From Alphaproteobacteria bacterium (lineage in GTDB: Bacteria > Pseudomonadota > Alphaproteobacteria > Bin95): 64,000 nucleotides of DNA. Positions 72 to 48,062 of this stretch are shown here, in pieces. The DNA lies in the NCBI GenBank assembly GCA_965261985.1, contig OZ253490.1:1511947-1575946 (forward strand), read 5' to 3'. Position 1 is the stretch's first letter, and every line of letters begins with the position of its first letter. Both the position numbers and the translations under genes were made by a program. The notes under the pieces are model-generated. The model saw only the letters and a list, made by a program, of their open reading frames with translations. It ran no database searches and had not been told where the DNA came from.

Positions 72-1271
72 TCAGGCGAGCTTCGCCATCGCCCGGGCGA
101 TGCGCCGGCCGGCCTCTTCCAGCCGGTCGAGTGGGGCCGCATAGCTCACCCGGACATGCGGCGAGAGGCCGTAGGACGCGCCCTGCACGACCGCGACATG
201 CGCCTCCTCGACCAGATAGTCGGCGACCGCCGTATCGTCGTCGAGCCGCCGGCCGGACGGCGCGATGCAGCCGATGGCCGAGGCGACCGACGGATAGACA
301 TACATCGCCCCTTCCGGCGCATGGCAGGGAAGGCCCGCCTCGTTCAGCGCGGCGACCATCAGGTCGCGGCGCTCATGCATGATCTGCCGCCGCTCCTCGA
401 CGATGTCCTTGGGCCCGTCGAGCGCCGCCAGCGCCGCATGCTGGCCGACCGCATTGGGGCAGGAGACAAGCTGGCCCTGGAGCTTCGCCATTTCCTGGAC
501 AATATCGCGCGGGCCGCCGGCGAAGCCCACCCGGAACCCGGTCATCGAATAGGCCTTGGAGACGCCGTTGATCGTGAGCGTGCGCGAGAACAGCTCCGGG
601 ACCACATTGGCCATCGTGGCGAGCGGCGCGCCCGTATAGAGCAGGTGCTCGTAGATGTCGTCCGCCATCACATGCACATGGCTGTGGCGCGCCAGCACGG
701 CGGCGAGCGCCCGCAGGTCGTCCGCCGAATAGGCGGCGCCGGAGGGGTTGGAGGGCGAGTTAAGCGAGAGCCACTTCGTCTTTGGGCCGATGGCGGCTTC
801 CAGGTCCTCCGGGAGCAGGCGGAAGCCGTTCTGCTGCGGGCAGGAAACCGGCACCGGCACGCCGCCGGCAAGCCGCACAAGGTCCTCATAGGCGCCCCAG
901 AAGGGTGCGGGCAGGATCACCTCGTCGCCGGGGGCGAGCGTTGCCAGGAAGGCGCAGGAGATCGCCGCCTTGGCGCCCGTCGTTGCAAGCACCTCGTCGG
1001 CAGCGTAGTCGAGGCCGTTCTCGCGGCTGAACTTGCGCCGGATCGCCTCCTTGAGCTCGGGGATGCCGTCGCGGTTGGTATAGCCGACGACGCCCGCCGC
1101 CATCGCCTTCTCAGCCGCCGCACGCACATGGTCCGGCGGCGGGAAGTCGGGCTGCCCGATGGTGAGGTTGATGACGTCGATGCCGTCGGCGGCCATGGCG
1201 CGGGCGCGCATCGCGGCATTCTGGCTGGCGGAGGCCTTGAAGCGGCGCATCCTCGGCGCAATGATCGACAT
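72..1271 (-). CDS. PLP-dependent class I aminotransferase (aspartate/aromatic aminotransferase-like)
   Basis: Translation MSIIAPRMRRFKASASQNAAMRARAMAADGIDVINLTIGQPDFPPP... has an AspC-family architecture of about 399 aa. The upstream part of the 484-aa ORF lacks similarity. Start chosen at the ATG at 1271. Confidence 0.8.
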   Translation of the reverse strand: MSIIAPRMRRFKASASQNAAMRARAMAADGIDVINLTIGQPDFPPPDHVRAAAEKAMAAGVVGYTNRDGIPELKEAIRRKFSRENGLDYAADEVLATTGAKAAISCAFLATLAPGDEVILPAPFWGAYEDLVRLAGGVPVPVSCPQQNGFRLLPEDLEAAIGPKTKWLSLNSPSNPSGAAYSADDLRALAAVLARHSHVHVMADDIYEHLLYTGAPLATMANVVPELFSRTLTINGVSKAYSMTGFRVGFAGGPRDIVQEMAKLQGQLVSCPNAVGQHAALAALDGPKDIVEERRQIMHERRDLMVAALNEAGLPCHAPEGAMYVYPSVASAIGCIAPSGRRLDDDTAVADYLVEEAHVAVVQGASYGLSPHVRVSYAAPLDRLEEAGRRIARAMAKLA

Positions 1272-1338
1272 GGGAAACCTGCTACCCCCAAGACCTCGCA
1301 ACGGCGCGGGGTTATAGCACCGATAGGAGCGCCGCCCC

Positions 1339-2307
1339 ATGCCGAGCAACACCCCGCGCAGAATCACTGTCGCCGCCGCGCAGATGGGTCCCGTCGCGCG
1401 CGACGAGCCGCGCAACCGGGTCGTCGGGCGGCTCGTGGAGATGATGCGCGAGGCGCAAGGGCGCGGCGCGGAACTGGTCGTCTTCCCCGAGCTCGCGCTC
1501 ACCACCTTCTTCCCGCGCTGGTTCATGGAGGACGTGACGGAACTGGACGCCTTCTACGAGGCGGAGATGCCGGGGCCGGAGACGCAGCCGCTCTTCGACA
1601 CCGCGGCCGAACTCGGCGTCGGCTTCTATCTCGGCTATGCGGAGCTGACGCGCGAAGACGGGCGCGAGCGGCGCTACAACACATCCGTACTCGTGGACCG
1701 GGAGGGGCGCATCGTCGGCAAATACCGCAAGGTGCATCTGCCGGGGCACAGCGAATACGAGGCGGCGCGCCCCTGGCAGCATCTGGAGAAGCGCTATTTC
1801 GAGGTGGGCGACCTCGGCTTCCCGGTCTGGAGGACGATGGGCGGCGTGATGGGCATGGCGCTCTGCAACGACCGCCGCTGGCCGGAGACCTTCCGCGTGA
1901 TGGGCATGAAGGGCGTCGAGCTGGTGATGCTCGGCTACAACACGCCGGCCGCCAACTCGCTCGGGCCGGAGCCGCACCATGTGCGGATGCTGCACAACCA
2001 TCTCAGCATGCAGGCCGGCGCCTACCAGAACGGCTGCTGGGTGGTCGGCACCGCCAAGGCCGGCCATGAGGAAGGCTGCGATCTGATGGGCGGAAGCTGC
2101 ATTATCGCGCCGTCGGGGGAGATCGTGGCCCAGGCGCATACGCTGGAGGACGAGGTGGTCGCCTATGACTGCGACCTGGAGGAAGGCCACTTCAACAAGG
2201 AGACGATCTTCAACTTCGCCGCCCACCGCCGCCCGGAGCACTATGCCATCATCACCGCGCAGACAGGCGCGACCGAACCCGCCGAGGAAGAAGGCGCCTC
2301 GCTCTAG
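1339..2307 (+). CDS. N-carbamoyl-D-amino-acid hydrolase (D-carbamoylase), carbon-nitrogen hydrolase superfamily
   Basis: 322-aa product with near-colinear similarity to Agrobacterium D-carbamoylase (FPELALTTFFPRW, GKYRKVHLPGH, ICNDRRWPE, HLSMQAGAYQNG, HIFNFAAHRRPEHY). Confidence 0.85.
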   Translation: MPSNTPRRITVAAAQMGPVARDEPRNRVVGRLVEMMREAQGRGAELVVFPELALTTFFPRWFMEDVTELDAFYEAEMPGPETQPLFDTAAELGVGFYLGYAELTREDGRERRYNTSVLVDREGRIVGKYRKVHLPGHSEYEAARPWQHLEKRYFEVGDLGFPVWRTMGGVMGMALCNDRRWPETFRVMGMKGVELVMLGYNTPAANSLGPEPHHVRMLHNHLSMQAGAYQNGCWVVGTAKAGHEEGCDLMGGSCIIAPSGEIVAQAHTLEDEVVAYDCDLEEGHFNKETIFNFAAHRRPEHYAIITAQTGATEPAEEEGASL

Positions 2308-2310
2308 CGG

Positions 2311-3042
2311 ATGGCGGTCACGCCGGAACCGGGCATGCGCGAGACCGCGCTGTATTCGCCCCTGAAGGCGTTTCTCGAAGCCCAGGGCTATGCCGTCAAG
2401 GGCGAGGTCAATGGGTGCGATATTGCAGCGGTGCGTGGAGATGAGCCGCTCGTTATCGTCGAGATGAAGACACGGTTCTCGCTGTCGCTGGTTCTTCAGG
2501 GCATTGCGCGGCAGGGTCTTTCCGACCGCGTCTATCTCGCCGTGCCGCCGTTCACCGGCCGCACGCCGCGGCAGCGCGACGCACTCGCGCTCTGCCGCCG
2601 GTTGGGCCTGGGGCTGATCGCAGTGCGGCCGGGACCCGAACCGGCGGTGGAGACGCTCCTCGATCCCGCCCCCTATCGTCCGCGCCTGCGAAAGCGCGCG
2701 GCGGAACGGCTGCTGCGGGAGTTCCAGCGGCGCGTCGGCGACCCGAATGTGGGCGGTTCGACCTGGCGGAAACTGATGACCGCATACCGGCAGGACGCCC
2801 TGCGTTGCGCTGTCTGCCTGCAACGGAACGGCCCGACAAAAGCGGCAACGGTCGCCGAGGCTACGGGCGTGGCCCGGGCCAGGGCGATCATGTATGCCGA
2901 CCACTATGGGTGGTTCGAGCGGCCCGAAAGCGCGGCTCCCGGCATCTATGCCCTGACGCCAAAAGGGGCCGATGCGCTCCGGGACCGTGCGGACATTCTT
3001 GCCCTGCTTGAGCCGGACGGAGGGCCTGCGCCGAATCCCTGA
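2311..3042 (+). CDS. conserved hypothetical protein (possibly DUF2161-like)
   Basis: 243-aa ORF with coding-like composition and no recognisable catalytic motif. The start could be the second ATG at 2335. Confidence 0.45.
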   Translation: MAVTPEPGMRETALYSPLKAFLEAQGYAVKGEVNGCDIAAVRGDEPLVIVEMKTRFSLSLVLQGIARQGLSDRVYLAVPPFTGRTPRQRDALALCRRLGLGLIAVRPGPEPAVETLLDPAPYRPRLRKRAAERLLREFQRRVGDPNVGGSTWRKLMTAYRQDALRCAVCLQRNGPTKAATVAEATGVARARAIMYADHYGWFERPESAAPGIYALTPKGADALRDRADILALLEPDGGPAPNP

Positions 3043-3051
3043 CTGCGCCGG

Positions 3052-3585
3052 TCAGGCCTCCGGAAATCCGGGCTCGCGGGTTCGGCGTCCGGCGAGCCGG
3101 CCTTCGTCGTCGATGAGCGCGACGCGCGCCGGACGGTTCTCTCCCCACCGCCACATCACGAGGTTGAGGTCGTCGGCGCCCGCCCCGGCGGCAAAACTCC
3201 GGACCCGCATGCCCGCATAGCCTGCCGCGATCAGGCGGTCGGCCAGGGCCTGCGATGCCGGGACCTGGCCGGCAAGCATCTCCGCTTCCCAGGAGGTGCA
3301 GGCCAGGTCGGACTCCGTCACGCCCAGCGAACGGCGTTCTGCCTCGTCCAGCGCGTCGAAGACAGGATCGGCATCGACTTCATAGGCGCAAAGCGTGAGC
3401 GGCTGCATCGGTCGGCCGAGCGGCTCCGCTTCGCGTATGGCGGTCAACGGAGCCAGCGAGGTGTAATGCGCCGGGACGCCGCGCCGGTTGAAGCGCCCGC
3501 CATGGCGGCGTGCACCCTCGCCGGACAGCGGCGACCAGGACCATTGCGGATTGTGCGCCCGGTAAACCAGCCCCCGGAAGCGCAT
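3052..3585 (-). CDS. RES-domain toxin of an RES-Xre type II toxin-antitoxin pair
   Basis: 177 aa with RES-domain hallmarks (Arg/Glu/Ser core, GGRFNRRGVPAHYTS). Sits immediately downstream of a DUF2384/Xre-type antitoxin gene on the same strand. Confidence 0.7.
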   Translation of the reverse strand: MRFRGLVYRAHNPQWSWSPLSGEGARRHGGRFNRRGVPAHYTSLAPLTAIREAEPLGRPMQPLTLCAYEVDADPVFDALDEAERRSLGVTESDLACTSWEAEMLAGQVPASQALADRLIAAGYAGMRVRSFAAGAGADDLNLVMWRWGENRPARVALIDDEGRLAGRRTREPGFPEA

Positions 3586-3600
3586 CAGGCGTGGGCAGCC

Positions 3601-3951
3601 TCAGGCATAGCCGCCTGCCATGATCCGGTCGAGATAGGCATGCACATGGTCGGCTTTGCCTTCGCGCACCAGCAGGTCGGACGTGGCGCCGCCGAATCCC
3701 GGCAGGGGCTCGGCCCGAAACCAGGCATAGGCTGCGAGCGGCGATCCGGTCTGGGCCTCAACGCGGTTCAGGATCTCCAGCATCTGGCGCAACCGGGTCT
3801 GCGTCTTCCGCGCCCGCACCCGCGAGGCGCGCGAAAAGGCATCTTTGCCGAGCCCCAGCGTGCCGGCGATCTCGGACCGGGTGGTGCGCAGCGCCTCGGC
3901 GATAAGCGCCGGAGAAAATGCCCGATCCTCGATGAATTCCTGAAATTGCAC
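3601..3951 (-). CDS. Xre/MbcA/ParS-like antitoxin (DUF2384) partner of the RES toxin
   Basis: 116-aa ORF 15 bp upstream of the RES gene. Its C-terminal DUF2384-like region fits the canonical antitoxin-then-toxin order. Confidence 0.6.
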   Translation of the reverse strand: MQFQEFIEDRAFSPALIAEALRTTRSEIAGTLGLGKDAFSRASRVRARKTQTRLRQMLEILNRVEAQTGSPLAAYAWFRAEPLPGFGGATSDLLVREGKADHVHAYLDRIMAGGYA

Positions 3952-4051
3952 GATACAACCTCACATTTCCTGACGCATTTTAGTGCGACAAAAGATGTTT
4001 TTCCAGAGGCGGCGTATGGCTTGCCGGAAATGGTGTTGCCGCTTCCGGCTT

Positions 4052-4753
4052 TCAGGCCTCCTTGCCGTAGCGGTGCAGTCCGCGGCCTTCGGTCTTGAGC
4101 CAGCGTTCGGCGGCGTCGGTTTCCGGGCAGAGGCGGCGGCAGAGGCTCCAGAAGCGGGGGCTGTGGTTCATCTCGCGGAGATGCGCCACCTCATGCGCGG
4201 CCAGATAGTCCAGCACGAAGGGCGGAGCCATGACCGCGCGCCAGGAGAAATTCAGCCGTCCGGCGGCGCTGGCGCTGCCCCAGCGCGTCTTCTGGTCCCG
4301 GATGACGATGCCGCGCGGCTGCACGCCGAGCGCGGCGGCATGGCGGGCAACGGCTTCCTCGAAGGCGCGCCGCGCTTCATGCCGCAACCAGCCTTCCACC
4401 AGCCGGGAGCACCCGGCCGGGCTCGCCAGCAGGATGCGGTCGTCCTCAAGCCTGAGCGGGTCCCGGAGCGCCGGGTCGAGGCGGATCCGGCGCGGACGGC
4501 CTCGAAACGGGACGGTCTCGCCGGGCTCGAACGGCACCGGGGCCGGCGTTTCCTGCAACCGGCCCGCCACCCATTCGCCGCGGCTCTCGAGGAACGCGAG
4601 GCCGGTCGCCTCGCTCGCGCCCGGTGGCAGCGTCAGACGGACCTCGCCGCCCCGGATGCTGAGCGAGATGCACCGTGCGCGCGGATTGCGGCGCACGGCG
4701 ACCCGGACCTCGCGGCCGCCGAGCCGGACCTGCCTAAAGCGCCCAGTCGACAA
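4052..4753 (-). CDS. M48-family / YgjP-like (DUF45) metal-dependent hydrolase
   Basis: 233 aa with an [16 protein letters not shown] zinc-binding HExxH motif typical of YgjP/SprT-like proteins. Confidence 0.7.
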
Positions 4754-5174
4754 TATGGCGTTCCAGGTCTTCCTGGTCGCTGCCGATCTCGTCCTCCGAG
4801 ATCACCTTGCCGCGCACGGACATCTGCGCCAGATGCACGGTTTCCGGGTCTCCCGAGACCAAGGGGTGCCACCAGTAGAGGTCCTTGCCCTCATGCAGCA
4901 GGCGGTAGGCGCAGCTCGACGGCATCCAGGCGATCTCGGCGACATTGCGCGGCGAGAGCTGGATGCAGTCCGGCACGCGGGCCTTGCGGTTGGGGTAGTC
5001 GGTGCAGCGGCAGCTTTCGGAGTCGAGCAGCCGGCAGGTGACGCAGGTCGGCTCGATCTCGCCCGTATCCGCCCATTCGATCTTGAGCAGGCAGCATTTG
5101 CCGCAGCCGTCGCAGAGCGACTCCCACTCTTCCGGCGTCATCTCGTCCAGCCGCTTCTCGCGCCAGAACGTCAT
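4734..5174 (-). CDS. YcgN-family cysteine-cluster protein (UPF0260)
   Basis: 146-aa product [31 protein letters not shown]... with the conserved Cys cluster. Start ATG at 5174. The 352-aa ORF upstream of it is non-coding. Confidence 0.75.
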
Positions 5175-5569
5175 GGCCGCCGTCCGTCCCGCCCGCTGCC
5201 CGGCTCTTCCTGGCGTTCGTCGCCGGTGAGGCCGAGCGCCCACATTGCGGCCAGCACACCGCCCTTCGCCACCGGCAGCAGCACGGCGATCAGAGCCAGC
5301 GCCAGCAGCGGCCAGACCAGCACCTGCAGCCAGAGCGCCGGCGCCCAGGTCTGCTCGACGAACAGCAGCAACGGCACGACGATATGCCCGGTGACCAGAA
5401 TGGCGATATAGGGCGGGAAATCGTCGGCGCGGATATGGCCGAGCGCCTCGCCGCACCCGGCGCAGGCCGCTACCGGGCGCAGATAGCCGGCAAAAGCCGC
5501 TCCCTCGCCGCAGGCGGGGCAGCGCCGGCGAAGGCCGTTGCGGAGGGCGGGTCCGAGCGCGCGCGCCAT
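5171..5569 (-). CDS. DUF983 family protein
   Basis: CPACGEG...CAGCGE zinc-ribbon followed by a hydrophobic segment. Start ambiguous: ATG at 5569 or TTG at 5605. Confidence 0.5.
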
Positions 5570-5616
5570 GCCCGGCAAGGTGGCCCCGCCTTCGCAGCGG
5601 GTCAAGCGGCGCCGCG

Positions 5617-6897
<1,281 letters not shown>

Positions 6898-15319: not shown

Positions 15320-15451
15320 ATGGCGGAATACAATGCGGCAGCGGAAGAGGCGCGTCACCAGCACATCTGGGGCGGTTTCTGCACGTTCCTCGGCTGGTCC
15401 ACCGGCGGGGTGATAGTCCTGCTGGCAATGCTGGCGGCGACGCTGCTGTAA
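15320..15451 (+). CDS. 43-aa single-TM small protein (possibly aa3-type cytochrome oxidase subunit IV-like)
   Basis: Not in the supplied ORF track because it is below 60 aa. Product MAEYNAAAEEARHQHIWGGFCTFLGWSTGGVIVLLAMLAATLL has a hydrophobic C-terminal helix. Weak resemblance to bacterial CoxIV (RHQQ..F.GF). Confidence 0.3.
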   Translation: MAEYNAAAEEARHQHIWGGFCTFLGWSTGGVIVLLAMLAATLL

Positions 15452-15466: not shown

Positions 15467-15652
15467 ATGGCCGGAGACAAGGTGAAGGTCGAGGTCGAGC
15501 TGAACCCCGACATGCTGACCCTGCTCGACGACGTGGTGAAGGATTACCGCCTGCCGGACCGCGGCAAGGCGCTGCGCTGCCTGCTGGACTGGCTGGCCGT
15601 GGACGGCGACCGCGACCGGGTGTTCAAGAAGGTCCGCTGCCGGCGCTGCTGA
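15467..15652 (+). CDS. hypothetical small protein (61 aa)
   Basis: GGAGG Shine-Dalgarno site 7 nt upstream of the ATG. Predicted beta-strand plus helix, possibly ribbon-helix-helix-like. Its 3' end overlaps convergent cobK. Confidence 0.35.
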   Translation: MAGDKVKVEVELNPDMLTLLDDVVKDYRLPDRGKALRCLLDWLAVDGDRDRVFKKVRCRRC

Positions 15653-16373
15653 GCGCCCACTCGACCGCTTCTTCGACGCTGGAAACACGCGGGCCCGGCT
15701 CCAGCGGCGGTCGGCGGATCATCGCGACGGGAATGTTGCGTTCGCGCGCGGCGGCGATCTTGGCTTCCGTCGCAGCGCCGCCGGAAGCGCGCGTCACCAG
15801 CGTCCCGATACCGTAGTCATCGAACAGCCGGCGTTCGTCCGCGAGGTCGAACGGACCGCGCGCCAGCACCACATCCGCACCCGGCAGCGGCGAAAGGCCG
15901 GGGTCGATGCGGCGCAGCACGAAGCGGCGGTGCGGGAGCCCTGCAAAGGCGTCGAGGTCGCCGGGGCCGAGCGTCAGGAACACCGCGTCCGGCAAGCCGG
16001 CAAGCGCGGCGGCGGCCTCCCCGGCATCCGCCACGCAAAGCCAGCGGTCCCCCGGCTCCCGCCGCCACATCGGCCGCTCGACCGCGAGCCGGGGCACGCC
16101 CGCCCTTTCCGCCGCCTCGCGCGCATGGGCGGAGATACGCGCGGCAAAGGGGTGCGTCGCGTCGATCAGCCTCTCGATGCGCTCCTCGCGGAGATAGCAC
16201 GCGAGACCCGCCGTGCCGCCGAAGCCGCCGGTCCGGACCTTACCCGCCAGCGCCGCCGGACGCCGCGTCCGGCCGGCGAGCGAACTCGTGACAGCCGCCC
16301 GCCCGTCGAGCGCGCGCGCAATCGCCGCCCCCTCGCCCGTCCCGCCCAGGATCAGCACGCGGGGTCTAGACAC
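15624..16373 (-). CDS. cobK: precorrin-6A / cobalt-precorrin-6A reductase
   Basis: RVLILGGTGEGAAIARAL N-terminus and CobK/CbiJ family similarity throughout. The start is ambiguous: GTG at 16373, GTG at 16358 or TTG at 16397. Confidence 0.75.
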   Translation of the reverse strand: MSRPRVLILGGTGEGAAIARALDGRAAVTSSLAGRTRRPAALAGKVRTGGFGGTAGLACYLREERIERLIDATHPFAARISAHAREAAERAGVPRLAVERPMWRREPGDRWLCVADAGEAAAALAGLPDAVFLTLGPGDLDAFAGLPHRRFVLRRIDPGLSPLPGADVVLARGPFDLADERRLFDDYGIGTLVTRASGGAATEAKIAAARERNIPVAMIRRPPLEPGPRVSSVEEAVEWALSSAGSGPS

Positions 16374-16592
16374 CGGCCTCGCGCCGATGGGCGCCAACTA
16401 TCTGACAAAGCGTCGTTGTTGTCCCGAGATTTGCAACTGGGAAACAAATGCCGCAACTGGAGCCGGGAGAAAACACATGAGGAATGTCATCCTCGCCGAG
16501 GCACGCGTCAAGGTGCTCGGACCTGGCTCGCCTCGCTGCGCGCCGGTCAGCCTTGGCATCCGGCTATGCGCCGGGATTGATCGATCGACGGC

Positions 16593-16608
16593 TTGACAGT
16601 AGTATAAT
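16593..16608 (+). promoter_or_regulatory. consensus TTGACA and TATAAT hexamers upstream of relB (putative promoter/operator)
   Basis: TTGACA at 16593-16598 and TATAAT at 16603-16608 lie in an AT-rich patch of a GC-rich genome and are flanked by TCGAC repeats. They are only 4 bp apart, so this is not one canonical -35/-10 pair. Confidence 0.35.
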
Positions 16609-16644
16609 GTCTTCGACATCGTACGACTTCGCTCGGAGTCAACC

Positions 16645-16866
16645 ATGAGTCAGGTCACAGCCCGGCTTCCCGATGAACTGGTCAAGGCCCTCGACGACGC
16701 CGCCCGGGATCTCAAGCGTTCTCGCGCGGAGGTGATCCGCCAGGCCATCGAGCGCTACGTCGAGGATTTCGACGACCTGAGTGTCGCGATAGACCGACTC
16801 CGCGACCCAAGCGACCCGGTGCTCGACTGGGATGACGTCAGGCGTGGCCTACTCCGTCAGGATTAA
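16645..16866 (+). CDS. relB: RelB/DinJ-CopG-type antitoxin (ribbon-helix-helix)
   Basis: 73 aa with an N-terminal ribbon-helix-helix region (PDELVKALDDAARDLKRSRAEVIRQAIERY). Overlaps the downstream RelE-family ORF. Confidence 0.7.
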   Translation: MSQVTARLPDELVKALDDAARDLKRSRAEVIRQAIERYVEDFDDLSVAIDRLRDPSDPVLDWDDVRRGLLRQD

Positions 16867-17098
16867 AGGGAGCGCGGCCAGGGAGCTGGCCCGAATCGCG
16901 AAGCCGGCACGCGCGCGAATCGCTGAGGCGATCGATGGCCTCGCCGGGAACCCGTTCACGGGGACCGCCCTGAAGGGTGAGCTGCGCGGATTGCGGCGAA
17001 TCCGGGTCGGGGAGTATCGGATCGTGTATGAGATTCAGGAGGGGGAACTCGTCGTGCTGGTGATCCGGGTGCGCCACCGTAGAGACGTGTATCGCTGA
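16832..17098 (+). CDS. relE: RelE/ParE-family type II toxin
   Basis: 88 aa with C-terminal VGEYRIVYEIQEGELVVLVIRVRHRRDVYR typical of RelE/ParE. An alternative GTG start lies at 16844. Confidence 0.7.
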   Translation: MTSGVAYSVRIKGSAARELARIAKPARARIAEAIDGLAGNPFTGTALKGELRGLRRIRVGEYRIVYEIQEGELVVLVIRVRHRRDVYR

Positions 17099-17360
17099 GA
17101 TGCGATGTCAGTTCCATTCGTGAAGCGGTGCGCCGATGGATGGCCGAAGGCCCGGCGCGCCTGCTCGTCCGAGGGCCGCCCCATCCGGTGAACCGCCCGA
17201 GGCCCTCGCCGAACGCCCCGCACTCCGTTCCGCTGGCCTCTTCACCCTTTGAGACGCCCACGACCCGTAATTCGGCGTGGAATCCCGAGTCTGGCTCACT
17301 TGCGATGTAGCTTCGTCAGGCGGCAGGCGCGAGGCCCGCTCCGAGCAGGTCGATACCGGC

Positions 17361-18419
17361 CTATCCGTGTAAATCTCCTCTCCGATTTACGCCAGCCTCG
17401 CCGATTACCCGGCCACGCCGGTCGAACACGCGGACATCGACTTCCGTGCCGCCGGCGAGCACGGCGAGCGCCGTCTCGCGCGCCTGCTCGGCGATGCGCC
17501 GGGCGAGCGGCAGGCTGCCGGCCAGCTCCAGCACCGCACCCGCGCTGTGCGCCCCGCGCGCGTCCGGCCCGCCGAGCGCCTTCAAGTCCGCCGCCAGGCG
17601 CGGGATATCGACCGGGGCGCGGTCGGAATGCAGGTCCAGATGTCCTGCCGCCAGCTTGGAGAGCTTGCCGAAGCCGCCCGCAAGGCTGAGCCGCGCCACC
17701 GGCCGCCGGCGGAGATATTTCAGCAGCGCGCCCGCGAAGTCGCCCATGTCGATCATGCCGTGCGCCGGCAGGCCGAGCAGCGCCTGCAACGCTTCCTCCG
17801 AGCCGCGCCCGGTCGCCGCCCCGATACGGTCGAGGCCCGCGGCGCGCGCGACATCCACGCCGCGATGGACCGCATGAATCCAGGCCGCGCAGGAATAGGG
17901 GATGACGACCCCCGTGGTGCCGAGCACCGAGAGCCCGCCCTCGATGCCGAGCCGCGCATTGGCCGTCTTCAGCGCCAGCGCCTCGCCGTTCCCGATGCCG
18001 ATCTCGGCCTCGATATCGGCCGGGAGCCCGTATTCGTCGGCGACGGCGCGCAGGTTGTCGGCGATGATGGCGCGCGGGCCGGGATTGATCGCCGGCTCGC
18101 CGACGGCAAGCGGCAGGCCGGGCAGGGTGACAGTGCCGACGCCGGGGCCCGCCCGGAAACGCACGCCCGAGCCCGGCGGCGCGGGGTGCAGCCGGGCGCG
18201 CACGATGGCGCCGTGCGTGGCGTCCGGGTCGTCGCCCGCGTCCTTCTCCACGCCGATCCACGCGCCGGTCTCGGCGAGCGCAAAGGAGGCCTTGAGGCCG
18301 CGCGGCAGGTCGATCGTGACCGGGTCGGGCAGGCGGCCGGTGAAAAGGCGCTCGCAGGCGGCCCGCGCCGCCGCCGCCGCGCAGGCGCCCGTCGTCCAGC
18401 CGCGTCTCAGTTCCGCCAT
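17361..18419 (-). CDS. cbiD: cobalt-precorrin-5B (C1)-methyltransferase
   Basis: LRRGWTTGACAAAAARAA N-terminal CbiD signature. Start ATG at 18419. The 378-aa ORF has 26 non-homologous residues upstream. Confidence 0.8.
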   Translation of the reverse strand: MAELRRGWTTGACAAAAARAACERLFTGRLPDPVTIDLPRGLKASFALAETGAWIGVEKDAGDDPDATHGAIVRARLHPAPPGSGVRFRAGPGVGTVTLPGLPLAVGEPAINPGPRAIIADNLRAVADEYGLPADIEAEIGIGNGEALALKTANARLGIEGGLSVLGTTGVVIPYSCAAWIHAVHRGVDVARAAGLDRIGAATGRGSEEALQALLGLPAHGMIDMGDFAGALLKYLRRRPVARLSLAGGFGKLSKLAAGHLDLHSDRAPVDIPRLAADLKALGGPDARGAHSAGAVLELAGSLPLARRIAEQARETALAVLAGGTEVDVRVFDRRGRVIGEAGVNRRGDLHG

Positions 18420-18477: not shown

Positions 18478-19293
18478 ATGACCGATACCATGCCCACCCT
18501 GCCCGAGAGCGAGGCGACCGGCCGCGCCGCCGCCCTCTATGCCGACATCCGGGACGTTCTCGGCGTGCCGGTGGTGAACCTGATCTGGCGCCGCCTCGCA
18601 CACTTTCCCGGTGCGCTGGAATGGGCGTGGGGCGCCGTCCGCCCGCTCTATGCGGGCGGCGCGGCCGATGCCGCAGCGGCGGCGATCCAGGCGCGCACGC
18701 CGCTGCCGGACCTGCCGCCCTGGCCCCGCGAGATGCTGCCGGCGATGGGCCTGGGCGAGGCGGAGAACGCGGCGATCCTGCACATTCTGGCGAGCTACGA
18801 CCGCGGCAACCGGCTGAACCTCGCCGCCCTCGGCGCGCTGCTGCAGGCATTGGAAGGCGCGCCGGCGCGCGGTTCCGTTCCGGCGGCCGGGGACGGCGCG
18901 CGCGCGGCGGTCGAGGGCGAGCTCCCGCCCATCCCCGCAATGGAGGCGCTTTCGCCGGAGGTGCGCGAGCTGGTGCTCCGGCTGAACGAACTCGGCAATA
19001 GCGGCGATAATGTCGTGGCCAGCCTCTACCGGCATCTGGCTTACTGGCCGGGCTACCTGGCGCTCGCCTGGGTGCAGCTTGCGGCGCTCGACCGGGACGG
19101 GCGGCTTGCCGCCACGATTGCCGCCGGGGCGGAGGCGGCGCGGGAGGCTTCGGCCGGGCTCGTCGGCGGCCTCGACCTGCCGGCGGAGCCGCCGCCGCCC
19201 GAAGTCGCCGAGGCAGTTGGGCAGTTCGTGCGCGGCCCCATCGCGCGGATGACGCCGGTCTCCCTGCTGCTTCTGCATCTTCTCGGGAAATGA
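18478..19293 (+). CDS. DehI-family (halocarboxylic acid dehydrogenase DehI-like) protein with an internal pseudo-repeat
   Basis: 271 aa. YADIRDVLGVPVVNLIWRRLAHFPGALEWAW is repeated as LYRHLAYWPGYLALAWVQL, matching the two-repeat DehI fold. The start codon follows a 58-bp divergent gap from cbiD. The stop overlaps the cobA start (ATGA). Confidence 0.5.
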   Translation: MTDTMPTLPESEATGRAAALYADIRDVLGVPVVNLIWRRLAHFPGALEWAWGAVRPLYAGGAADAAAAAIQARTPLPDLPPWPREMLPAMGLGEAENAAILHILASYDRGNRLNLAALGALLQALEGAPARGSVPAAGDGARAAVEGELPPIPAMEALSPEVRELVLRLNELGNSGDNVVASLYRHLAYWPGYLALAWVQLAALDRDGRLAATIAAGAEAAREASAGLVGGLDLPAEPPPPEVAEAVGQFVRGPIARMTPVSLLLLHLLGK

Positions 19294-20160: not shown

Positions 20161-20418
20161 ATGACCAAGACGGCCACGATCCGCGCCCGTGTCGAACCGG
20201 ACCTCAAGGAGGACGCCGAGATGGTGTTCTCGCAATTGGGGCTTTCGGCCACCCAGGCGATCAGGCTGTTCTACAAGCAGGTCACGCTGCAACGCGGCCT
20301 GCCATTCGCAGTCAAGGTTCCCAACGCGGAGACGCGCGAAGCGTTGCGACAAGCCTACGATCGCGACGAACTCACCGAGTACGAGACTCTGGACGCAATG
20401 AAGGCAGCCCATCGGTAA
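20161..20418 (+). CDS. dinJ: DinJ/RelB-family antitoxin
   Basis: 85 aa. IRARVEPDLKEDAEMVFSQLGLSATQAIRLFYKQV...GLPFAV matches DinJ. Strong AGGAGG ribosome-binding site. An imperfect palindrome GTGATACATTTGTCAC lies just upstream. Confidence 0.8.
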   Translation: MTKTATIRARVEPDLKEDAEMVFSQLGLSATQAIRLFYKQVTLQRGLPFAVKVPNAETREALRQAYDRDELTEYETLDAMKAAHR

Positions 20419-20567
20419 CCGTTCCAACAGGCCGTGGAACTAACCGGATCGGCGCTACATTCCGGCGGCCGGAGGGTGATTTTCTGCGCACCGCGGGCTA
20501 CGGAAGGCCGTCATGGGCCTTTCGCTCCCTTGCAGGTTTCTAGTGATTGTGGCGTGCACTCTACCGC

Positions 20568-22385
20568 TCAGCCGTCGTGTTTCCGGCGCCAGCCATAGCG
20601 CGCCAACAATTCGACATATACTTCAGGGCCCATTCGTCCCGCCCGCGAAGAACCTCCCGGAAAGACCTTCTCTTCCACCCTTCCGTCGTCGATGTTGAGC
20701 AGATAAGTCCCGGTGCCCGAGAGAATCACCCACGCCATGGCCTTGGTAAGCGGTGCCGGTTCCAATTGGACGACTGCCAAGCTGTCACGAATGATGCACA
20801 CGCTGCCCGCAATGGGCCCGAACTGGGTCACAAGATCGAGAATGAAGCGGTGGGCGTACCATGCTGACGCCGCCGCCGCCGCTCGTTTCTCTCCCTCCAG
20901 CAGGTCGACCGCCATTCGAAGCGACTGCCCACACTCCACGACATGCGTAAGCTCCGCCGGAGTGCACCGCGAGAGACCATCGTAGGGAATTGGCGGTTTG
21001 GGCTGACTCGGATTTAGGCAGAACTCCAACACAAGCCGCGGGTCAATTGGGTTTTCGTCCACAGTGTCGTACCGCAATGTGGGCGGAATAACCAGTCCGG
21101 TCGGCGGAGTCCCGATGGGCGGACCCTCTGCCAATGCCGGGTTCTGTCGAAGCGTCTCCACGCGCCAGTGTTCTGTTTCTTCATCGCGATACGCTTCGTG
21201 GACGAACCGAATCTGCGTCCCAATCTGGTGCAATATGATGACGTCCGGTCGCTGCTCTTCGTCCGAAGGGAATGGTTCCGGCACCTCCTCCGGCGACGTC
21301 ACAACTTCTTCGACAACTTCTTCTCTCGAATCTGCCGAATTCTGCTGTTCCTGATTCCAACTCGAACGTCGACCACGCGTAATTTGCCGCCTGTAGGTGT
21401 ATGTTCTGCCCGTCTCCCGCTCTTGATTTGCCGGTGACTCATCTTTGGAGACTTCCGCCACCGTCTTCTCCAGCTTGCCTTCCGGGTACTTCACTGGAAA
21501 CAGACAGTCCTTGAGCATGCCCGACATTGGAAGGTCGAACACCTCTCCGACCTCTGGGCCGATTGACAGCATCGCGAATCGGTATTCCATCTGTGCCGCG
21601 TAGTCACGCTCCCGCGACTTCAGAAAGATCATTGCAGAGAGTTTCTCCCAGCCCGGTTCGGCCTGCTCGATGCACTGATAGGGGCTGTCCACATAGAGCA
21701 TCGGCCCGTGCACCACGATCTGGGACCGCCGCTGCTCCTCCACGGTTCTGAATCCTCCAAAAGTCGCGCGCGCTGGCTCTGCCTTTCCACGTACGCCGAT
21801 ATGCTCGCACACACCGAGCCCCAAGCCTTGGGCGAATTGGGTCGGGCGATAGACCGACGTGAAACTCGTATAGCTGTCGGGAAACGACCTCCTCCAAGCG
21901 TTCTCCTTATCCTCGGAAGGGCGCATCGACATGCAGTAAATCAGCCAGTCGGCGCCGAACGTCGCCGCCTGCCTGCTGCTCTTCGACTCGGTATGCCGCT
22001 CGCTCCCACTCAACGACATCTTCGTGCGTGAGAGTTGGAGCCCAGCGTTCAAGGCTGAGACCCGTTCCGCTGACAGTTGCGGCTCCTCGCTCGGCACCTC
22101 GACCGTCTCGCTGGACGACATCCGCGCGCGGCCCTCTTGTTCGTCTTGGATCAGCACTTCACCCTTATCCCGGAAGGCTCCAGGGCGCGACAAGCGAATC
22201 GTGGATGCTGTCGCGAGGCCATATTGGGACTCCGTCGCCTTGACAAGACGCATACCGTCCTTCTCTATCTGTCCCGACAGATCCACGTACATCGTCTGAA
22301 CGTAGTTCCCTTGCGGCGTCAGGAACGCCCCCTCTGTGGCTATCCTCATCTTGGGGAACACGAATTCCCTTCGCTCATCTTCCAA
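20568..22385 (-). CDS. 605-aa hypothetical protein (ORFan) of lower GC, no recognisable domain
   Basis: Uninterrupted 1.8-kb ORF in a visibly lower-GC segment. The TTG start is preceded by AAGGAGA at 8-nt spacing. No Walker, HExxH or other motif identified. Confidence 0.55.
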   Translation of the reverse strand: MEDERREFVFPKMRIATEGAFLTPQGNYVQTMYVDLSGQIEKDGMRLVKATESQYGLATASTIRLSRPGAFRDKGEVLIQDEQEGRARMSSSETVEVPSEEPQLSAERVSALNAGLQLSRTKMSLSGSERHTESKSSRQAATFGADWLIYCMSMRPSEDKENAWRRSFPDSYTSFTSVYRPTQFAQGLGLGVCEHIGVRGKAEPARATFGGFRTVEEQRRSQIVVHGPMLYVDSPYQCIEQAEPGWEKLSAMIFLKSRERDYAAQMEYRFAMLSIGPEVGEVFDLPMSGMLKDCLFPVKYPEGKLEKTVAEVSKDESPANQERETGRTYTYRRQITRGRRSSWNQEQQNSADSREEVVEEVVTSPEEVPEPFPSDEEQRPDVIILHQIGTQIRFVHEAYRDEETEHWRVETLRQNPALAEGPPIGTPPTGLVIPPTLRYDTVDENPIDPRLVLEFCLNPSQPKPPIPYDGLSRCTPAELTHVVECGQSLRMAVDLLEGEKRAAAAASAWYAHRFILDLVTQFGPIAGSVCIIRDSLAVVQLEPAPLTKAMAWVILSGTGTYLLNIDDGRVEEKVFPGGSSRAGRMGPEVYVELLARYGWRRKHDG

Positions 22386-22667
22386 TCTCGTTGTCTCCTT
22401 GGCTTCAATAGCGCGTCACGGTGGGCGAGCCGGGCGTCCACACGCGGTGGGTCGCCTGCATGCAACGCTTGCGACGGTCCCGGCACGTTCGACTCGGGTG
22501 CAGCGCGCAGCTCGATATCGGTCCCTGCGACGATACCGGCTCATCCGCATATTGTCGCGCGAACCGAGAGTCAATCAGGCCCTCAGGGCGCTCTTGCCGG
22601 GCGTGTCTTGCCCGTAAGGGGTCAACGTGCCCCGGTCTGACGGAACGGATACGCCCATCGCTGAGGC

Positions 22668-28709: not shown

Positions 28710-29657
28710 CTACAGCCCCAGATGCGCCTTGACGGCCGCCATGCCGTCGCCGCCGTCCATGGTCGTCACGCCGTCGAGCCAGCCGGCCAGCACGTCCGGA
28801 TTGCTCTTGAGCCACGCCGTCGCCGCCATGTCGGGCTCCTCTTTTTCGTCGAGGATCGCCGTCATGATCTCGTTTTCCATGGCCAGCGTGAACTTGAGGT
28901 TGGCCAGCAGCTTGCCGACATTGGGACATTCCGCGGCATAGCCGCGCCGGACATTGGTGAACACCTCGGCGCCGCCGAAATTCGGGCCGAACCAGTCATC
29001 GCCATCGGCGAGGTAGGTCAACGCGAAATTGGCGTTCATCGGGTGCGGCTCCCAGCCGAGGAAGACGATCCACTCCTCCTTGCGGTTGGCGCGCGCAACC
29101 TGGGCCAGCATGCCCTGCTCGCTCGACTCGACGACCTCGAAGCCCTTCAGGCCGAAGGCGTCCTTGTCGATCATGCTCTGGATCAGGCGGTTGCCGTCGT
29201 TTCCGGGCTCGATGCCGTAGATCTTGCCTTCCAGCATGTCGCGGTGTTTGGCGATGTCGCCGAAGCTCCCGATGCCGCCGTCGGCCGCCAGCTTGTTGAC
29301 GGCGAGCGTGTATTTGGCGCCGGTCAGGTTCATGCCCACGGTCTCGACCGACCCGTCGTCGCGATAGGGCGCGATGTCGGCTTCCATCGTCGGCATCCAA
29401 TTGCCGAGGAACACATCGATATCGCCGTTCTTGAGGCTGGTATAGGTGACAGGAACCGACAGCACCGTCGCGGTCGGCTCGTAGCCGAGGCCTTGGAGGA
29501 CGACCGAGGTGGCGGCGGTGGTCGAGGTAATGTCGGTCCATCCGACGTCCGAGAAGCGGACCGCCTTGCAGGAATCCGCATCGGCCGCCCAGCCGGCGGA
29601 AGACATCGTCAAGGCGGAAACGATCCCGATTGCCGCCAGTCGCACGCGCTTCGTCAT
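28710..29657 (-). CDS. proX: glycine betaine/choline ABC transporter substrate-binding protein (ChoX-like)
   Basis: Signal peptide and ProX/ChoX family fold motifs. Start ATG at 29657 with a GGGAGGA ribosome-binding site. Confidence 0.8.
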   Translation of the reverse strand: MTKRVRLAAIGIVSALTMSSAGWAADADSCKAVRFSDVGWTDITSTTAATSVVLQGLGYEPTATVLSVPVTYTSLKNGDIDVFLGNWMPTMEADIAPYRDDGSVETVGMNLTGAKYTLAVNKLAADGGIGSFGDIAKHRDMLEGKIYGIEPGNDGNRLIQSMIDKDAFGLKGFEVVESSEQGMLAQVARANRKEEWIVFLGWEPHPMNANFALTYLADGDDWFGPNFGGAEVFTNVRRGYAAECPNVGKLLANLKFTLAMENEIMTAILDEKEEPDMAATAWLKSNPDVLAGWLDGVTTMDGGDGMAAVKAHLGL

Positions 29658-29766
29658 CGCCTTGTCCTCCCGTTCCGTTGGCCGCCCGCATCCCGCTGTC
29701 TGCAAAGCGGGCTATGGTACGGCTACCATGACCGCGCCGCAAGGAAAGAAGCGGTGGGATGCAGCA

Positions 29767-31425
29767 ATGAGCGAAGGCCGGAATTTCGATTATGTCGTGG
29801 TCGGCGCGGGGTCGGCGGGGTGCGTGCTCGCCAACCGGCTGACCGAGGACGGCAGGGCGACCGTATTGGTGCTCGAGGCCGGCGGCAACGACCGCAGCAT
29901 ATTCCTGCAAATGCCGACGGCGCTCGCCATCGCCATGGGCCACAGGCGCTATGGCTGGCACTACTGGACCGAGCCCGAACCGCATCTGGGCGGGCGGCGC
30001 CTCCATTGCCCGCGCGGCCGGGTGCTGGGCGGCTCGTCCTCCGTCAACGGCATGGCCTATGTGCGCGGCAATGCGCTCGACTATGACGGTTGGGCAGAGG
30101 GCGGCGCGTCCGGCTGGTCCTATGCCGGGGTGCTGCCCTATTTCCGGCGGGCGGAAAGCTTCAGCGGCGGCGGCGACGACTGGCGCGGCGATTCGGGCCC
30201 GCTCAACACCTCGCGCGGAGCCATGACAAACCCGCTTTACGCCGCCTTCATCGAGGCGGGCGGGCAGGCAGGCTATGCCCGCACCGCAGACATGAACGGC
30301 TACCGGCAGGAGGGCTTCGGGCCGATGGACATGACGGTCCATCGGGGCCGGCGGTGGAGCGCCGCCAACGCCTATCTCAAGCCCGCCGCCGGGCGGCCCA
30401 ACCTCGCCGTGGAGACCGGCGCGCTGGCAACCCGCATCCTGCTCGACGACGGACGCGCCTCCGGCGTCGAGTACCGGCAGGGCGGCGCGGTCCGCACGGT
30501 GCAGGCGCGGCGCGAGGTCATCCTTTCGGGCGGCCCGATCAACTCGCCGCAACTCCTGATGCTCTCGGGTATCGGCCCGGCCGCGCATCTCGCGGAGCAT
30601 GGCATTGCGGTCGCTTGCGACCTGCCCGGCGTCGGCGGAAACCTCCAGGACCATCTGGAACTGTATGTGCAGCAGGAATGCACGCAGCCGATCACGCTCC
30701 ATTCCGCGACGGGCCTGCTGCAGAAAGCCCTGATCGGCGCCCGCTGGGTGCTGTTCAGGTCCGGGCTCGGCGCGACCAACCATTTCGAGGCCGGCGGCTT
30801 CATCCGCTCGCGTCCGGGCGTCCGCTGGCCGGACATCCAGTACCACTTCCTGCCGCTCGCGGCCTCCTACGACATGAGCGAGAGGGTCCGCTGCCACGGC
30901 TACCAGGCGCATGCGGGTCCGATGCGCTCGAAATCGCGCGGCGAGGTCCTGCTCGCGTCGGCCGACCCGCTGGAGCCGCCGAGGGTGCGGTTCGACTATA
31001 TGAGCCATCCCGACGACTGGGCGGAGATGCGCGCCTGCGTCCGCCTCACGCGGGAAATCTTCGCCCAGCCCGCCTTCGACCGCTATCGCGGCCGGGAACT
31101 CGCGCCGGGCGAGGCGGTGCGGAGCGACGAGGAGATCGACGCTTTCGTGCGCGAGACCGTCCAGAGCGCCTACCATCCCTGCGGGACCTGCAGGATGGGC
31201 ACCGACGCCATGGCGGTCGTCGATCCGGAACTGCGGCTTCGCGGCATGGACGGCCTGCGCGTGGTGGACAGCTCCGTCATGCCGGCGATCGCGACCGGCA
31301 ATCTCAATGCGCCGACGATCATGATCGCGGAGAAGGCGGCCGATGCAATTCGAGGCCTTCCGCCCCTGCCGCCCTCCGGCGCCTCCTTCTACACAGCGCC
31401 CGACTGGCAGGCGGCGCAGCGCTGA
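29767..31425 (+). CDS. betA: choline dehydrogenase (GMC oxidoreductase)
   Basis: FDYVVVGAGSAGCVLANRLTED, the GMC signature and a C-terminal HPCGTCRMG. 552 aa. Confidence 0.9.
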   Translation: MSEGRNFDYVVVGAGSAGCVLANRLTEDGRATVLVLEAGGNDRSIFLQMPTALAIAMGHRRYGWHYWTEPEPHLGGRRLHCPRGRVLGGSSSVNGMAYVRGNALDYDGWAEGGASGWSYAGVLPYFRRAESFSGGGDDWRGDSGPLNTSRGAMTNPLYAAFIEAGGQAGYARTADMNGYRQEGFGPMDMTVHRGRRWSAANAYLKPAAGRPNLAVETGALATRILLDDGRASGVEYRQGGAVRTVQARREVILSGGPINSPQLLMLSGIGPAAHLAEHGIAVACDLPGVGGNLQDHLELYVQQECTQPITLHSATGLLQKALIGARWVLFRSGLGATNHFEAGGFIRSRPGVRWPDIQYHFLPLAASYDMSERVRCHGYQAHAGPMRSKSRGEVLLASADPLEPPRVRFDYMSHPDDWAEMRACVRLTREIFAQPAFDRYRGRELAPGEAVRSDEEIDAFVRETVQSAYHPCGTCRMGTDAMAVVDPELRLRGMDGLRVVDSSVMPAIATGNLNAPTIMIAEKAADAIRGLPPLPPSGASFYTAPDWQAAQR

Positions 31426-38195: not shown

Positions 38196-38387
38196 GAGAG
38201 ACGCGAAGCGCGATGCGGGGCATCGGGCAAGCGGATCGACGCACCATGCCGGGCCGACAGCGCCGCCCTCCGGGTCGCACCCAGGCGCCCGCCCGCAGCG
38301 TCGCGGGCCTCAACCGTAGGCTCCGCTACGCTTTTCGGCCCGCTCCTTGCGGATCGAACGCCTGGACGCGACGCAGGCCGCGACCTT

Positions 38388-38470
38388 GGTGAGAAATCCG
38401 GGCTCACCCGGGCTCGCCTGACCGGGCGCGCATTGCAGGCCGTGACAATGGTGAGAATTCCGGGCTAAAC
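38388..38470 (+). repeat. two copies of a GTGAGAA(A/T)TCCGGGCT motif upstream of the dienelactone hydrolase gene (a third copy lies at 48005-48025)
   Basis: GGTGAGAAATCCGGGCTCACC (38388-38408) and GGTGAGAATTCCGGGCTAAAC (38450-38470) compare with AGTGAGGAATCCGGGCTAAAA at 48005. Confidence 0.5.
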
Positions 38471-41979: not shown

Positions 41980-42095
41980 GTCTTCCCGCTTGCCCTGCAC
42001 TCGCCCGCCGGGAGCAATGCCTTGGCTCTTATCATGACACCGGTCCCATGTCTTGCCGCCGGTAAACCGAAGCGGCGTTCGGGGTTGGAAGAGCG

Positions 42096-43001: not shown

Positions 43002-43181
43002 TTGGCGGTCAGGCACTTGCCGCTGGAGACGATGACCATGCGCCTGACGGGCGGCGGCAGCGACCGCCGCCTGCGGGCGTTCTTTTCCCTTACCCTGCTG
43101 CCAATGACCGGAATCGTGGCCGGAAATTCATGGGCGATTCTGGCGGCCATGTAGCAGGGAAACTCGGTGCTCGGTAGTGTT

Positions 43182-43913: not shown

Positions 43914-44099
43914 GGGGAAAATATACGAAAGTGCCCACGGGCCGTCATTCTGACGGCTTTGGCTCCCGCTTGAGATAGTCCCATTCATCCACGCCGCGGG
44001 GCGGGGCGGTCATCAGCGCACGAAGCACATTCTCCGGGCTGTCGGGGATACGCTCCGGCATGGGCTTCTCGACCGGTCGGTCGCGCTTGTGGGAATGGA

Positions 44100-44912: not shown

Positions 44913-45095
44913 GACAGACCCCGCAAGGCCCGTCGCTGGTGCCGGGCCGTTGTGACCGATCCACAGGAATGCAGAGAGTCCTGTCTATTCGCCGGGCATA
45001 GGGGAACAACCACGCGGCCGCGCGTCGGCTGTTCTATTCAGCAGGCGGCCCAACGAAGCGGGATGCCCATGGACTAGTCACGAGGTCAGTCTGCT

Positions 45096-47902: not shown

Positions 47903-48062
47903 GACAAAACATGACATTTCATGACATGTCGCGACCGTCCCGGCCCGACGGCGGGAGGGGGAAAAGAGGAGCGGCAGCGACGGCGGGGCGCAGACCATGA
48001 CACGAGTGAGGAATCCGGGCTAAAATCGCGCCTTGTTTCCACAGCAGCCGGGGAGGAAGCGC

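Follow-up and report, generated by a model that had tools for sequence, protein, structure and literature searches.

The cobalamin genes cbiD and cobK of an uncultured alphaproteobacterium were found to be parted by approximately 1 kb of DNA that carries a small toxin-antitoxin module of the RelB/RelE type, transcribed antisense to both of them. The locus lies within a 64,000-nucleotide stretch of contig OZ253490.1 (hereafter, the window). The parting segment, ~16383-17388, is likely the eroded remnant of an integrative island of which the toxin-antitoxin pair is the surviving cargo. The module would thus probably be all that still works of a mobile element once integrated at this site. In the split pair, cbiD is the upstream partner and cobK the downstream one, and the argument for an island rests on the state of this junction in relatives, on repeated sequence at both edges of the insert, and on the stump of an integrase gene beside cobK (Table 1).

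Earlier reading of the sequence (the initial annotation) had proposed that cbiD and cobK ought to be adjacent and that the module was wedged between them. This expectation was borne out by comparison with relatives, which are denoted here by L numbers. A CbiD scan over one genome per species recovered one close relative, L001, an uncultured alphaproteobacterium with a CbiD that is 91% identical. There, the stop codon of cbiD and the GTG start of cobK overlap by 8 bp, sharing GTGTCTAG; no module is present, and the same purN/purM neighbors follow. The uninterrupted junction of L001 reads ATCGGCGAGGCCGGTGTCTAG. Positions 1-1141 of L001 align with 18531-17389 of the window and positions 1129-5478 with 16382-12000, and hence the window holds about 1 kb of extra DNA together with ~13-21 nt of junction sequence that has been doubled. 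The same 8-bp overlap, and thus an empty site, was seen in L195, a deeper member of the clade (75% identity in CobK, same synteny), and cobK directly follows cbiD in 38 of 80 more distant relatives. Scans of the JGI metagenomes with the junction pattern and with CobK provided no further empty-site relative closer than 57% identity. The inserted segment, running from ~16383/16389 to 17388, is longer than the 16398-17098 flagged initially. Its lower GC content had also been remarked upon correctly: the insert (16383-17388) is 63.5% GC, compared to 74.4% for cobK and 75.3% for cbiD, and 8.3% of the 1006-bp windows across the 64 kb are as GC-poor.

These comparisons bear on the alternative that the module is ancestral at the cbiD-cobK junction and was lost from the relatives that do not have it. 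In a tree of four proteins, the carriers L105 and L107 branch below the empty-site L001, such that the emptiness of L001 is probably the product of a precise secondary loss, as the alternative would have it. On the other hand, cbiD and cobK overlap or adjoin each other in L195 and in outgroups at ~60% identity; the insert lies ~11 GC points under its flanks in every lineage; and it is edged by a duplicated target sequence and an integrase remnant. With a pair that is not universal and is GC-poor wherever it is present, the notion of an ancestral module of native composition fails. We regard this alternative as hardly credible and, at the level of the family, as refuted for practical purposes; the module is ancestral only insofar as its insertion is older than the divergence of the carrier lineages sampled.

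Direct copies of the 3' end of cbiD, with a core of approximately CGAGGCCGGTGTCTAG (~16-21 bp), were found at both edges of the insert. The cobK-side copy (DR2) reproduces the last ~21 nt of cbiD including its stop codon, and it bears the Shine-Dalgarno sequence (GAGG) and the GTG start of cobK. It has two extra nucleotides, likewise present in relative L197, as expected of an attP-derived arm. The cbiD-side copy (DR1) is broken in the window after GGCGT, and CbiD is thereby eight residues longer (NRRGDLHG; stop codon 17361-17363). In L104 and L110, this copy is complete including its TAG, with the toxin stop codon only 64 bp away, and theirs looks like the least modified form of the junction. 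DR1 and DR2 thus bound the insert in the manner of an attachment core, the uninterrupted target of which is present in L001, and its equivalent in L195. In the arm, which lies beside DR2, GCAACTGG occurs as a direct repeat at 16433-16440 and 16453-16460 (L083 and L197 have three copies), and these repeats are candidate arm-type binding sites for an integrase. The arm also has an integrase ribosome-binding site, GGGAGAA. An extra 20-bp unit provides a third GCAAC-type repeat in the arms of L083, L089, L096 and L197. In L081, ~114 bp comprising the arm and the integrase stump are tandemly duplicated upstream of the module (5378-5493 / 5507-5810).

Table 1. Features of the cbiD-cobK interval of the window; island parts are putative assignments.
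Feature	Position	Strand	Description
cobK (precorrin-6A reductase)	15624-16373	-	GTG start at 16373; Pfam CbiJ 219.6 bits, NF005968 285.7 bits
DR2, cobK-side direct repeat (att-like)	16366-16388	-	ATCGGCGCGAGGCCGGTGTCTAG in cobK sense; from alignment with the L001 empty site
Island arm beside DR2	16389-16476	+	~90 bp; homologous to the L197 stretch between integrase and cobK
Integrase remnant	16477-16524	+	first 16 codons of a P4-like tyrosine integrase, MRNVILAEARVKVLGP
Deletion scar, integrase remnant to toxin-antitoxin control region	16525-16569		length differs among lineages (alignments)
Toxin-antitoxin promoter/operator patch	16570-16644	+	52% GC; ribosome-binding site GGAG
Antitoxin	16645-16866	+	73 aa; CopG/RelB-type ribbon-helix-helix N-terminus, acidic C-terminal tail
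Toxin	16832-17098	+	88 aa; RelE/ParE superfamily, nearest RelE-type; C-terminus HRRDVYR
Island end 3' of toxin	17099-17162		64 bp; directly abuts native cbiD stop in L104 and L110
Later additions, some lineages only	17163-17388		~207-bp segment, partial target copy, hairpin
cbiD (cobalt-precorrin-5B C1-methyltransferase)	17361-18419	-	Pfam CbiD 263 bits, NF000849 410.7 bits; convergent with toxin gene
DR1, cbiD-side direct repeat	17389-17405	-	native cbiD 3' end, ATCGGCGAGGCTGGCGT in cbiD sense

The nature of the open reading frame (ORF) that begins at 16477 became apparent from a search for CobK homologs, after which the genomic contexts of three of them (L195, L196 and L197) were read. In L197 (88% identity in CobK), a gene encoding a 377-aa P4-like tyrosine integrase with Arm-DNA-bind_3, SAM_3 and Phage_integrase domains lies 141 bp upstream of cobK and divergent from it. 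The N-terminus of this integrase is MANVTLTEARVKALQP, and the ORF of the window (MRNVILAEARVKVLGP) is its stump. Positions 3318-3520 of L197 are 76.8% identical to 16518-16339 of the window over 203 nt, and the match of L197 to L083 is 85.6% over 209 nt; the homology between L197 and the window spans cobK, the repeat, the arm of ~90 bp and the first 16 codons of the integrase. Hence, the cobK-side edge of the insert retains only a 16-codon remnant and the upstream arm of an integrase gene whose intact homolog occupies the same site in L197. This intact gene is at 2226-3359 of ptg000954l (ENA ERZ18545484), at the same cbiD/cobK junction; behind it are a gene for an outer-membrane beta-barrel protein and a Mutator-type transposase. 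The truncation point is identical in the window, L104 and L105/L107, which points to a single ancestral deletion in the integrase. The third context, L196 (2350-3504; 82% identity in CobK), has a DUF1513 gene that overlaps cobK by 4 bp, preceded by a Peptidase_M75 gene, and no cbiD there; the junction upstream of cobK has accordingly been remodeled in at least three ways within the clade. The initial annotation was therefore correct in taking the module for foreign DNA within the cobalamin unit, as the insertion is confirmed, but the route of entry recorded in the flanking direct repeats and the integrase remnant had been missed.

The remainder of the insert appears to be of later date in part. 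The ~207-bp segment on the cbiD side is absent from L083, L096, L104, L105 and L107; near it are a third, incomplete copy of the target, GATACCGGCCT, at 17352-17362 and a hairpin with a 7-bp stem at 17369-17390 that is specific to the subclade of the window. These additions jointly account for the eight extra residues of CbiD. The spacer sequences are single-copy, in the window as well as at each locus. No structured RNA was detected in them or in the window, with fold z-scores of -0.30 (3' spacer) and -1.42 and no Rfam match at the gathering threshold or at E <= 1, and the ORFs of the 3' spacer have no Pfam match, so that no coding remnant was found there. Other vehicles were considered and rejected. 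An integron cassette would have an attC-like structure (RYYYAAC/GTTRRRY inverted repeats) 3' of the ORFs, and none was found; the sole hairpin is the subclade-specific one with a 7-bp stem, without an Rfam match. An insertion sequence (IS) or miniature inverted-repeat transposable element (MITE) carrying the module was first suggested by an 11-bp repeat together with an 11-nt inverted pair (16375-16385/17326-17336). The inverted pair is not terminal, and comparison with the empty site gave a duplication of ~16-21 bp rather than 2-14 bp.

From this anatomy, a P4-like tyrosine integrase is proposed to have inserted an island exactly at the overlapping cbiD stop and cobK start. Integration would have doubled the ~16-21 bp core, a duplication that would have left cbiD with an intact 3' end and cobK with both its Shine-Dalgarno sequence and its GTG start. 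A later deletion would have removed the integrase beyond codon 16 and the island interior up to the promoter of the module, leaving a self-contained type II module of ~540 bp with short island ends. By analogy with characterized members of these families, the ribbon-helix-helix dimer of the antitoxin would bind an ACAGTA/TAATGT palindrome over its own promoter and repress it, while its C-terminal tail would neutralize a toxin predicted to be a RelE-type, ribosome-dependent mRNA endonuclease. Loss or silencing of the pair would free the stable toxin, and this would explain both why the deletions stopped at the edges of the module and why the module persisted through speciation. For its part, cobK may owe its transcription to a promoter within the arm that the island left behind, or to cbiD transcripts that read through the module in antisense.

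The module consists of an antitoxin gene followed by a co-oriented and overlapping toxin gene, the gene order of type II systems. The two ORFs share 35 nt, a figure that falls to 23 nt should the toxin begin with the GTG at 16844, as in its 84-aa homologs. Residues 4-40 of the antitoxin match Pfam RHH_1 (PF01402; 43.8 bits, E 2e-11, cutoff 20.5), and among PDB structures the protein matches repressors of the CopG family. The toxin matches both Pfam ParE_toxin (PF05016; 58.8 bits, cutoff 23) and TIGR02385 RelE/StbE (32.5 bits, cutoff 27.9). Over its full length, it also matches the structures of RelE (9g12_A, E 2.7e-9) and Mycobacterium tuberculosis Rv2866 (3g5o_B, E 4.8e-9), as well as a third RelE or RelE-like structure (2khe), and all four proteins have in common a C-terminal H-R-x-D-V/I-Y-R motif. 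These coordinates and family matches agree with the earlier description of a 73-aa RelB-type antitoxin overlapping an 88-aa RelE/ParE toxin on the plus strand, and they support a type II module of the RelB/RelE kind. For the flanking cobK and cbiD, the earlier assignments are likewise confirmed, by Pfam and by NCBIfam equivalog models (Table 1). That the toxin might instead be a gyrase poison of the ParE type is suggested by the name of its top Pfam family, by a weak match to Pfam ParE-like_toxin, and by a match to the structure of ParE1 (E 2.5e-3). However, PF05016 takes in RelE and ParE proteins alike, the toxin scores above the cutoff of the RelE/StbE model, and the match to ParE1 is about a million-fold worse than those to the best three solved structures, each of which is RelE or RelE-like and bears the above motif. 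A ParE-type activity thus seems improbable, and an mRNA endonuclease of the RelE type is the favored prediction.

The control region of the module had been annotated as a consensus promoter. The perfect TTGACA (16593-16598) and TATAAT (16603-16608) hexamers are present as described, 4 bp apart, and with six and three copies, respectively, on both strands of the window they are rare enough to indicate that the AT-rich control patch is real. Their 4-bp spacing precludes a -35/-10 pair, however, and in sister lineages TATAAT is replaced by TGTAAT, CGTAAT or GGTAAT, and TTGACA by CCGACA or GTGACA; TATAAT is specific to the subclade of the window. The element conserved across upstream alignments is ACAGTA-N3-TAATGT(C)-N4-ACAT. 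In the window, its palindromic part, ACAGTA-gta-TAATGT(C), occupies 16596-16611, and ACAT, the third half-site, occupies 16616-16619; the three bases that part the first two half-sites vary. The half-sites are kept in L083, L104, L105 and L100, and the operator-like palindrome is kept even in homologs with 70% identity, where a canonical TTGACC-N17-TAATGT is followed by ACATTA. Given the conserved palindrome, the variable hexamers and the canonical spacing in these homologs, the two hexamers appear to be largely putative operator half-sites rather than a promoter pair. Nor did the several TCGAC repeats noted in the patch hold up; only two exact copies exist (16585 and 16613), neither of them conserved, and the conserved repeat is the palindrome with its ACAT. 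A relaxed scan listed TTGATC(16577)-N17-TAGTAT, TCGATC-N16-TATAAT and TTGACA-N18-CATCGT as candidate promoters, with putative -10 elements at 16600 (TAGTAT), 16603 (TATAAT) and 16617 (CATCGT). A terminator-like hairpin on the minus strand (16494-16479) has a 5-bp stem, is no better than shuffled sequence, and is not conserved in L104/L105.

The module is present at cbiD/cobK in at least five lineages, at ~88-93% identity. Identical module proteins were found in at least 13 metagenome contigs, every time between cobK and cbiD, and toxins 90-93% identical are encoded at the same site in L104, L110, L105/L106 and L107. The ratio of nonsynonymous to synonymous substitution rates (dN/dS) ranges from 0 to 0.20 in the toxin gene and from 0 to 0.21 in the antitoxin gene, indicating that the module is still under selection; in comparison with L081 and L083, every substitution in the toxin is synonymous. 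With L104, L105 and L107, the synonymous divergence (dS) of the module tracks that of the host genes, consistent with vertical descent. The toxin alone has been knocked out in two strains, by a 267-bp MITE in the toxin gene of L094 and by an 8-bp frameshift in L096, and in both the antitoxin is intact; toxin-first loss is the order of decay expected of an addiction module. A MITE of ~267 bp with ~34-bp terminal inverted repeats, 89% identical to that in the toxin gene of L094, is also present in the window at 38137-38402, together with partial MITE ends at 38435-38468, 47978-48022 and 55127-55161.

The core of the module has also been mobile beyond this site. A toxin 92% identical is encoded at an unrelated locus (L100-L103), a cluster of toxin-antitoxin modules that in its L101 version adjoins three integrases and a resolvase, and the homologs with 70% identity sit in variable contexts resembling defense islands. 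A plasmid origin was rejected, as a search of PLSDB gave neither a DNA match (in 'distant' mode) nor a protein match. Homology between the window and the L100 locus covers ~537 bp (~16570-17106), beginning ~75 bp before the antitoxin gene and ending a few bp beyond the stop codon of the toxin. It is conceivable, though unlikely, that this ~540-bp module came alone, by illegitimate or homologous recombination, into an integration hot spot where an island scar was already present, and the same capture event could itself have cut the integrase. The limits of the shared unit are compatible with such an event, as is its left edge in L104, which lies no more than ~10 bp from the truncation point of the integrase; furthermore, modules are known at plastic intercistronic sites that they entered by unknown mechanisms (PMC7167474). 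Conversely, the module lies strictly inside the att-like repeats and, in L104, only 64 bp from the cbiD-side core; the ~540-bp unit has no flanking target duplication of its own; and successive deletions limited by addiction would likewise trim an island to the functional edges of the module.

The decayed island thus remains the preferred explanation, but a number of results weigh against it. No toxin-antitoxin genes are present in the readable 3.5 kb of L197, which also speaks for a separate arrival of the module, and no intact island with the module has been seen, such that it is its location, with a repeat on either side, that marks it as putative cargo. In L081 and L087, the dS of the module is 0.04-0.07, compared to ~0.2-0.27 for the flanking or host genes, indicating recombination across the segment, again as arrival alone would allow. 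While a tree of CbiD and CobK left the placement of L001 unresolved (bootstraps of 42, 37 and 17%), the more informative four-protein tree, rooted on L195, placed L105/L107 below a polytomy that includes L001 with its empty site and L197 with its intact integrase. Carriers were monophyletic in none of 300 bootstraps of the latter tree, and hence the distribution of the module calls for at least one precise loss (L001), one replacement (L197) or a degree of recombination. The empty site of L001 is probably a precise secondary loss, whereas L197 could have retained or re-acquired its island, and recombination may blur this history. Concerning the module itself, the antitoxin scores 45 bits, under the cutoff of 50, against the NCBIfam RelB-like model NF048017 (a 'RelB family antitoxin' equivalog), and the label RelB-type would consequently be valid solely in the broad ribbon-helix-helix sense. 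The module was not matched in a PADLOC search for defense systems, and a strict scan of both strands for the sigma-70 consensus found no promoter.

With ~1 kb of oppositely oriented DNA now between the two genes, the translational coupling of cbiD to cobK has been broken, and the module may, as first suggested, interrupt or modulate cobK expression. Nevertheless, cobK retains its start codon and Shine-Dalgarno sequence and has been subject to purifying selection, its dN/dS in carriers (0.18-0.26) being equal to that in L001, from which it clearly appears to be still expressed. In L197, cobK is intact even though a whole island parts it from upstream DNA, an arrangement that favors a cobK promoter located in the retained arm. 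No intrinsic terminator was predicted between the toxin gene and cbiD, and in L105 their stop codons are 7 bp apart, so that the convergent transcripts must overlap there. Such an arrangement raises the notion that the module was co-opted to control the B12 genes, with transcriptional interference or antisense RNA tying the output of cobK or cbiD to an autoregulated, stress-responsive promoter of the module. Transcription of the module does converge on cbiD and diverge from cobK, at least five lineages have kept the module at this site, with purifying selection acting on it, and Rfam found no cobalamin riboswitch in the 64-kb window. Yet L001, L195, L196 and L197 all manage without the module, toxin knock-outs are present in the population, spacer lengths vary freely, and addiction alone would explain persistence. 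Co-option is therefore considered very improbable. An equally speculative extension would have a family of tyrosine-integrase islands target the cbiD/cobK stop/start junction and bring a copy of it with them, sparing both genes, with the leftover antisense module being kept through speciation because its transcription gates or insulates the expression of cobK and cbiD. If true, a selfish relic would have been turned into a regulator of B12 synthesis.

Several further features of the window were recorded. A second toxin-antitoxin locus is broken: its RelB/DinJ antitoxin gene (20161-20418; 85 aa; TIGR02384, 66 bits) is intact and is parted from the gene for its YafQ toxin by a GC-poor insert of 2.2 kb (20419-22654) bounded by a ~12-bp repeat, GCCCATCG(G/C)T(A/G)A. 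Of yafQ, a remnant encoding ~46 N-terminal residues is left (22668-~22805) before fusion to the next ORF, and in L087 and L104 an intact 88-aa YafQ is encoded directly after relB. Other strains have different IS elements at this site (IS110, IS66, DDE_Tnp_1), marking it as an insertion hot spot. Within the 2.2-kb insert, a 605-aa ORF (20568-22385, minus strand) has no Pfam, NCBIfam or PADLOC match. Two small plus-strand ORFs between purN and cobK (15467-15652, 61 aa; 15320-15451, 43 aa) match no family and are called in every related contig. The larger converges on the 3' end of cobK with a 29-nt overlap, and its product is 92% identical in L001. Between cbiD and cobA, a 271-aa ORF (18478-19293, plus strand), co-oriented with cobA and conserved across the clade, has a DehI-like Pfam match under the threshold (26.7 bits, cutoff 28.9), and it may be an uncharacterized partner in the B12 gene cluster. 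Other stretches with less than 64% GC in this window of 69% GC (41551-45957, 47551-48657 and 28801-29807) may be further foreign segments.

Type II modules inside bicistronic operons have been described in Escherichia coli, viz. mazEF in relA-mazG and yafNO in dinB-yafP, and how chromosomal toxin-antitoxin modules integrate 'remains unelucidated' (PMC7167474). As in those cases, a small type II module lies here between genes that, where it is absent, make up an intact bicistronic operon, at a plastic insertion site and with decay in some strains (PMC7167474). The present module differs in being antisense to the operon that it splits, in that the host genes originally overlapped by 8 bp, and in that its route of entry is visible as a target duplication and an integrase remnant, the mechanism in E. 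coli being unelucidated (PMC7167474). A literature search on toxin-antitoxin systems with cobK returned nothing relevant. With RelE (9g12) and the RelBE2 system of M. tuberculosis (Rv2865/Rv2866; 3g5o), the module shares a toxin that aligns over its full length, the HRxD(V/I)YR motif, and overlapping genes with the antitoxin first. Sequence identity is only moderate, and the antitoxin of the present module is of the CopG ribbon-helix-helix type, whereas Rv2865 is presumably of the Phd/YefM type. Islands with tyrosine integrases of the P4/CP4-57-like kind insert at the ends of genes and carry stabilizing modules, as with SXT at prfC, which carries mosAT, and the dusA-specific islands. Like these, the insert has repeats of the target end at both edges that regenerate the gene, GC-poor cargo, and precise empty sites in relatives, and it would once have had an arm-binding tyrosine integrase at one edge. 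Unlike them, its target is the stop/start overlap of two protein genes in one operon and not a tRNA gene, and it appears to have shrunk to ~1 kb, of which the module alone is still functional. For ccdO157, between folA and apaH in E. coli O157:H7, we know of no report of an integrase remnant. That module likewise occupies a fixed intergenic site where other strains have other small elements (PMC7167474), but its toxin is of the CcdB family, and the genes on either side of it are independent rather than members of a coupled operon.

It is common for chromosomal toxin-antitoxin modules to lie between core genes, and the event described here is of an ordinary kind, the module being otherwise a routine one of the RelE type in an uncultured lineage of Alphaproteobacteria. 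It is set apart by its antisense orientation, by the overlapping-gene junction, and by the preserved traces of integrase-mediated entry, and the trace left is unusually clear. Across relatives, the junction can be read in an empty state (L001, L195), with an intact integrase (L197), with an integrase stump and the module (the window and others), and with the toxin knocked out (L094, L096). This series supports a single route in which integration of an island was followed by deletions that halted at an addictive module, and the locus represents a natural experiment on the splitting of a translationally coupled gene pair.

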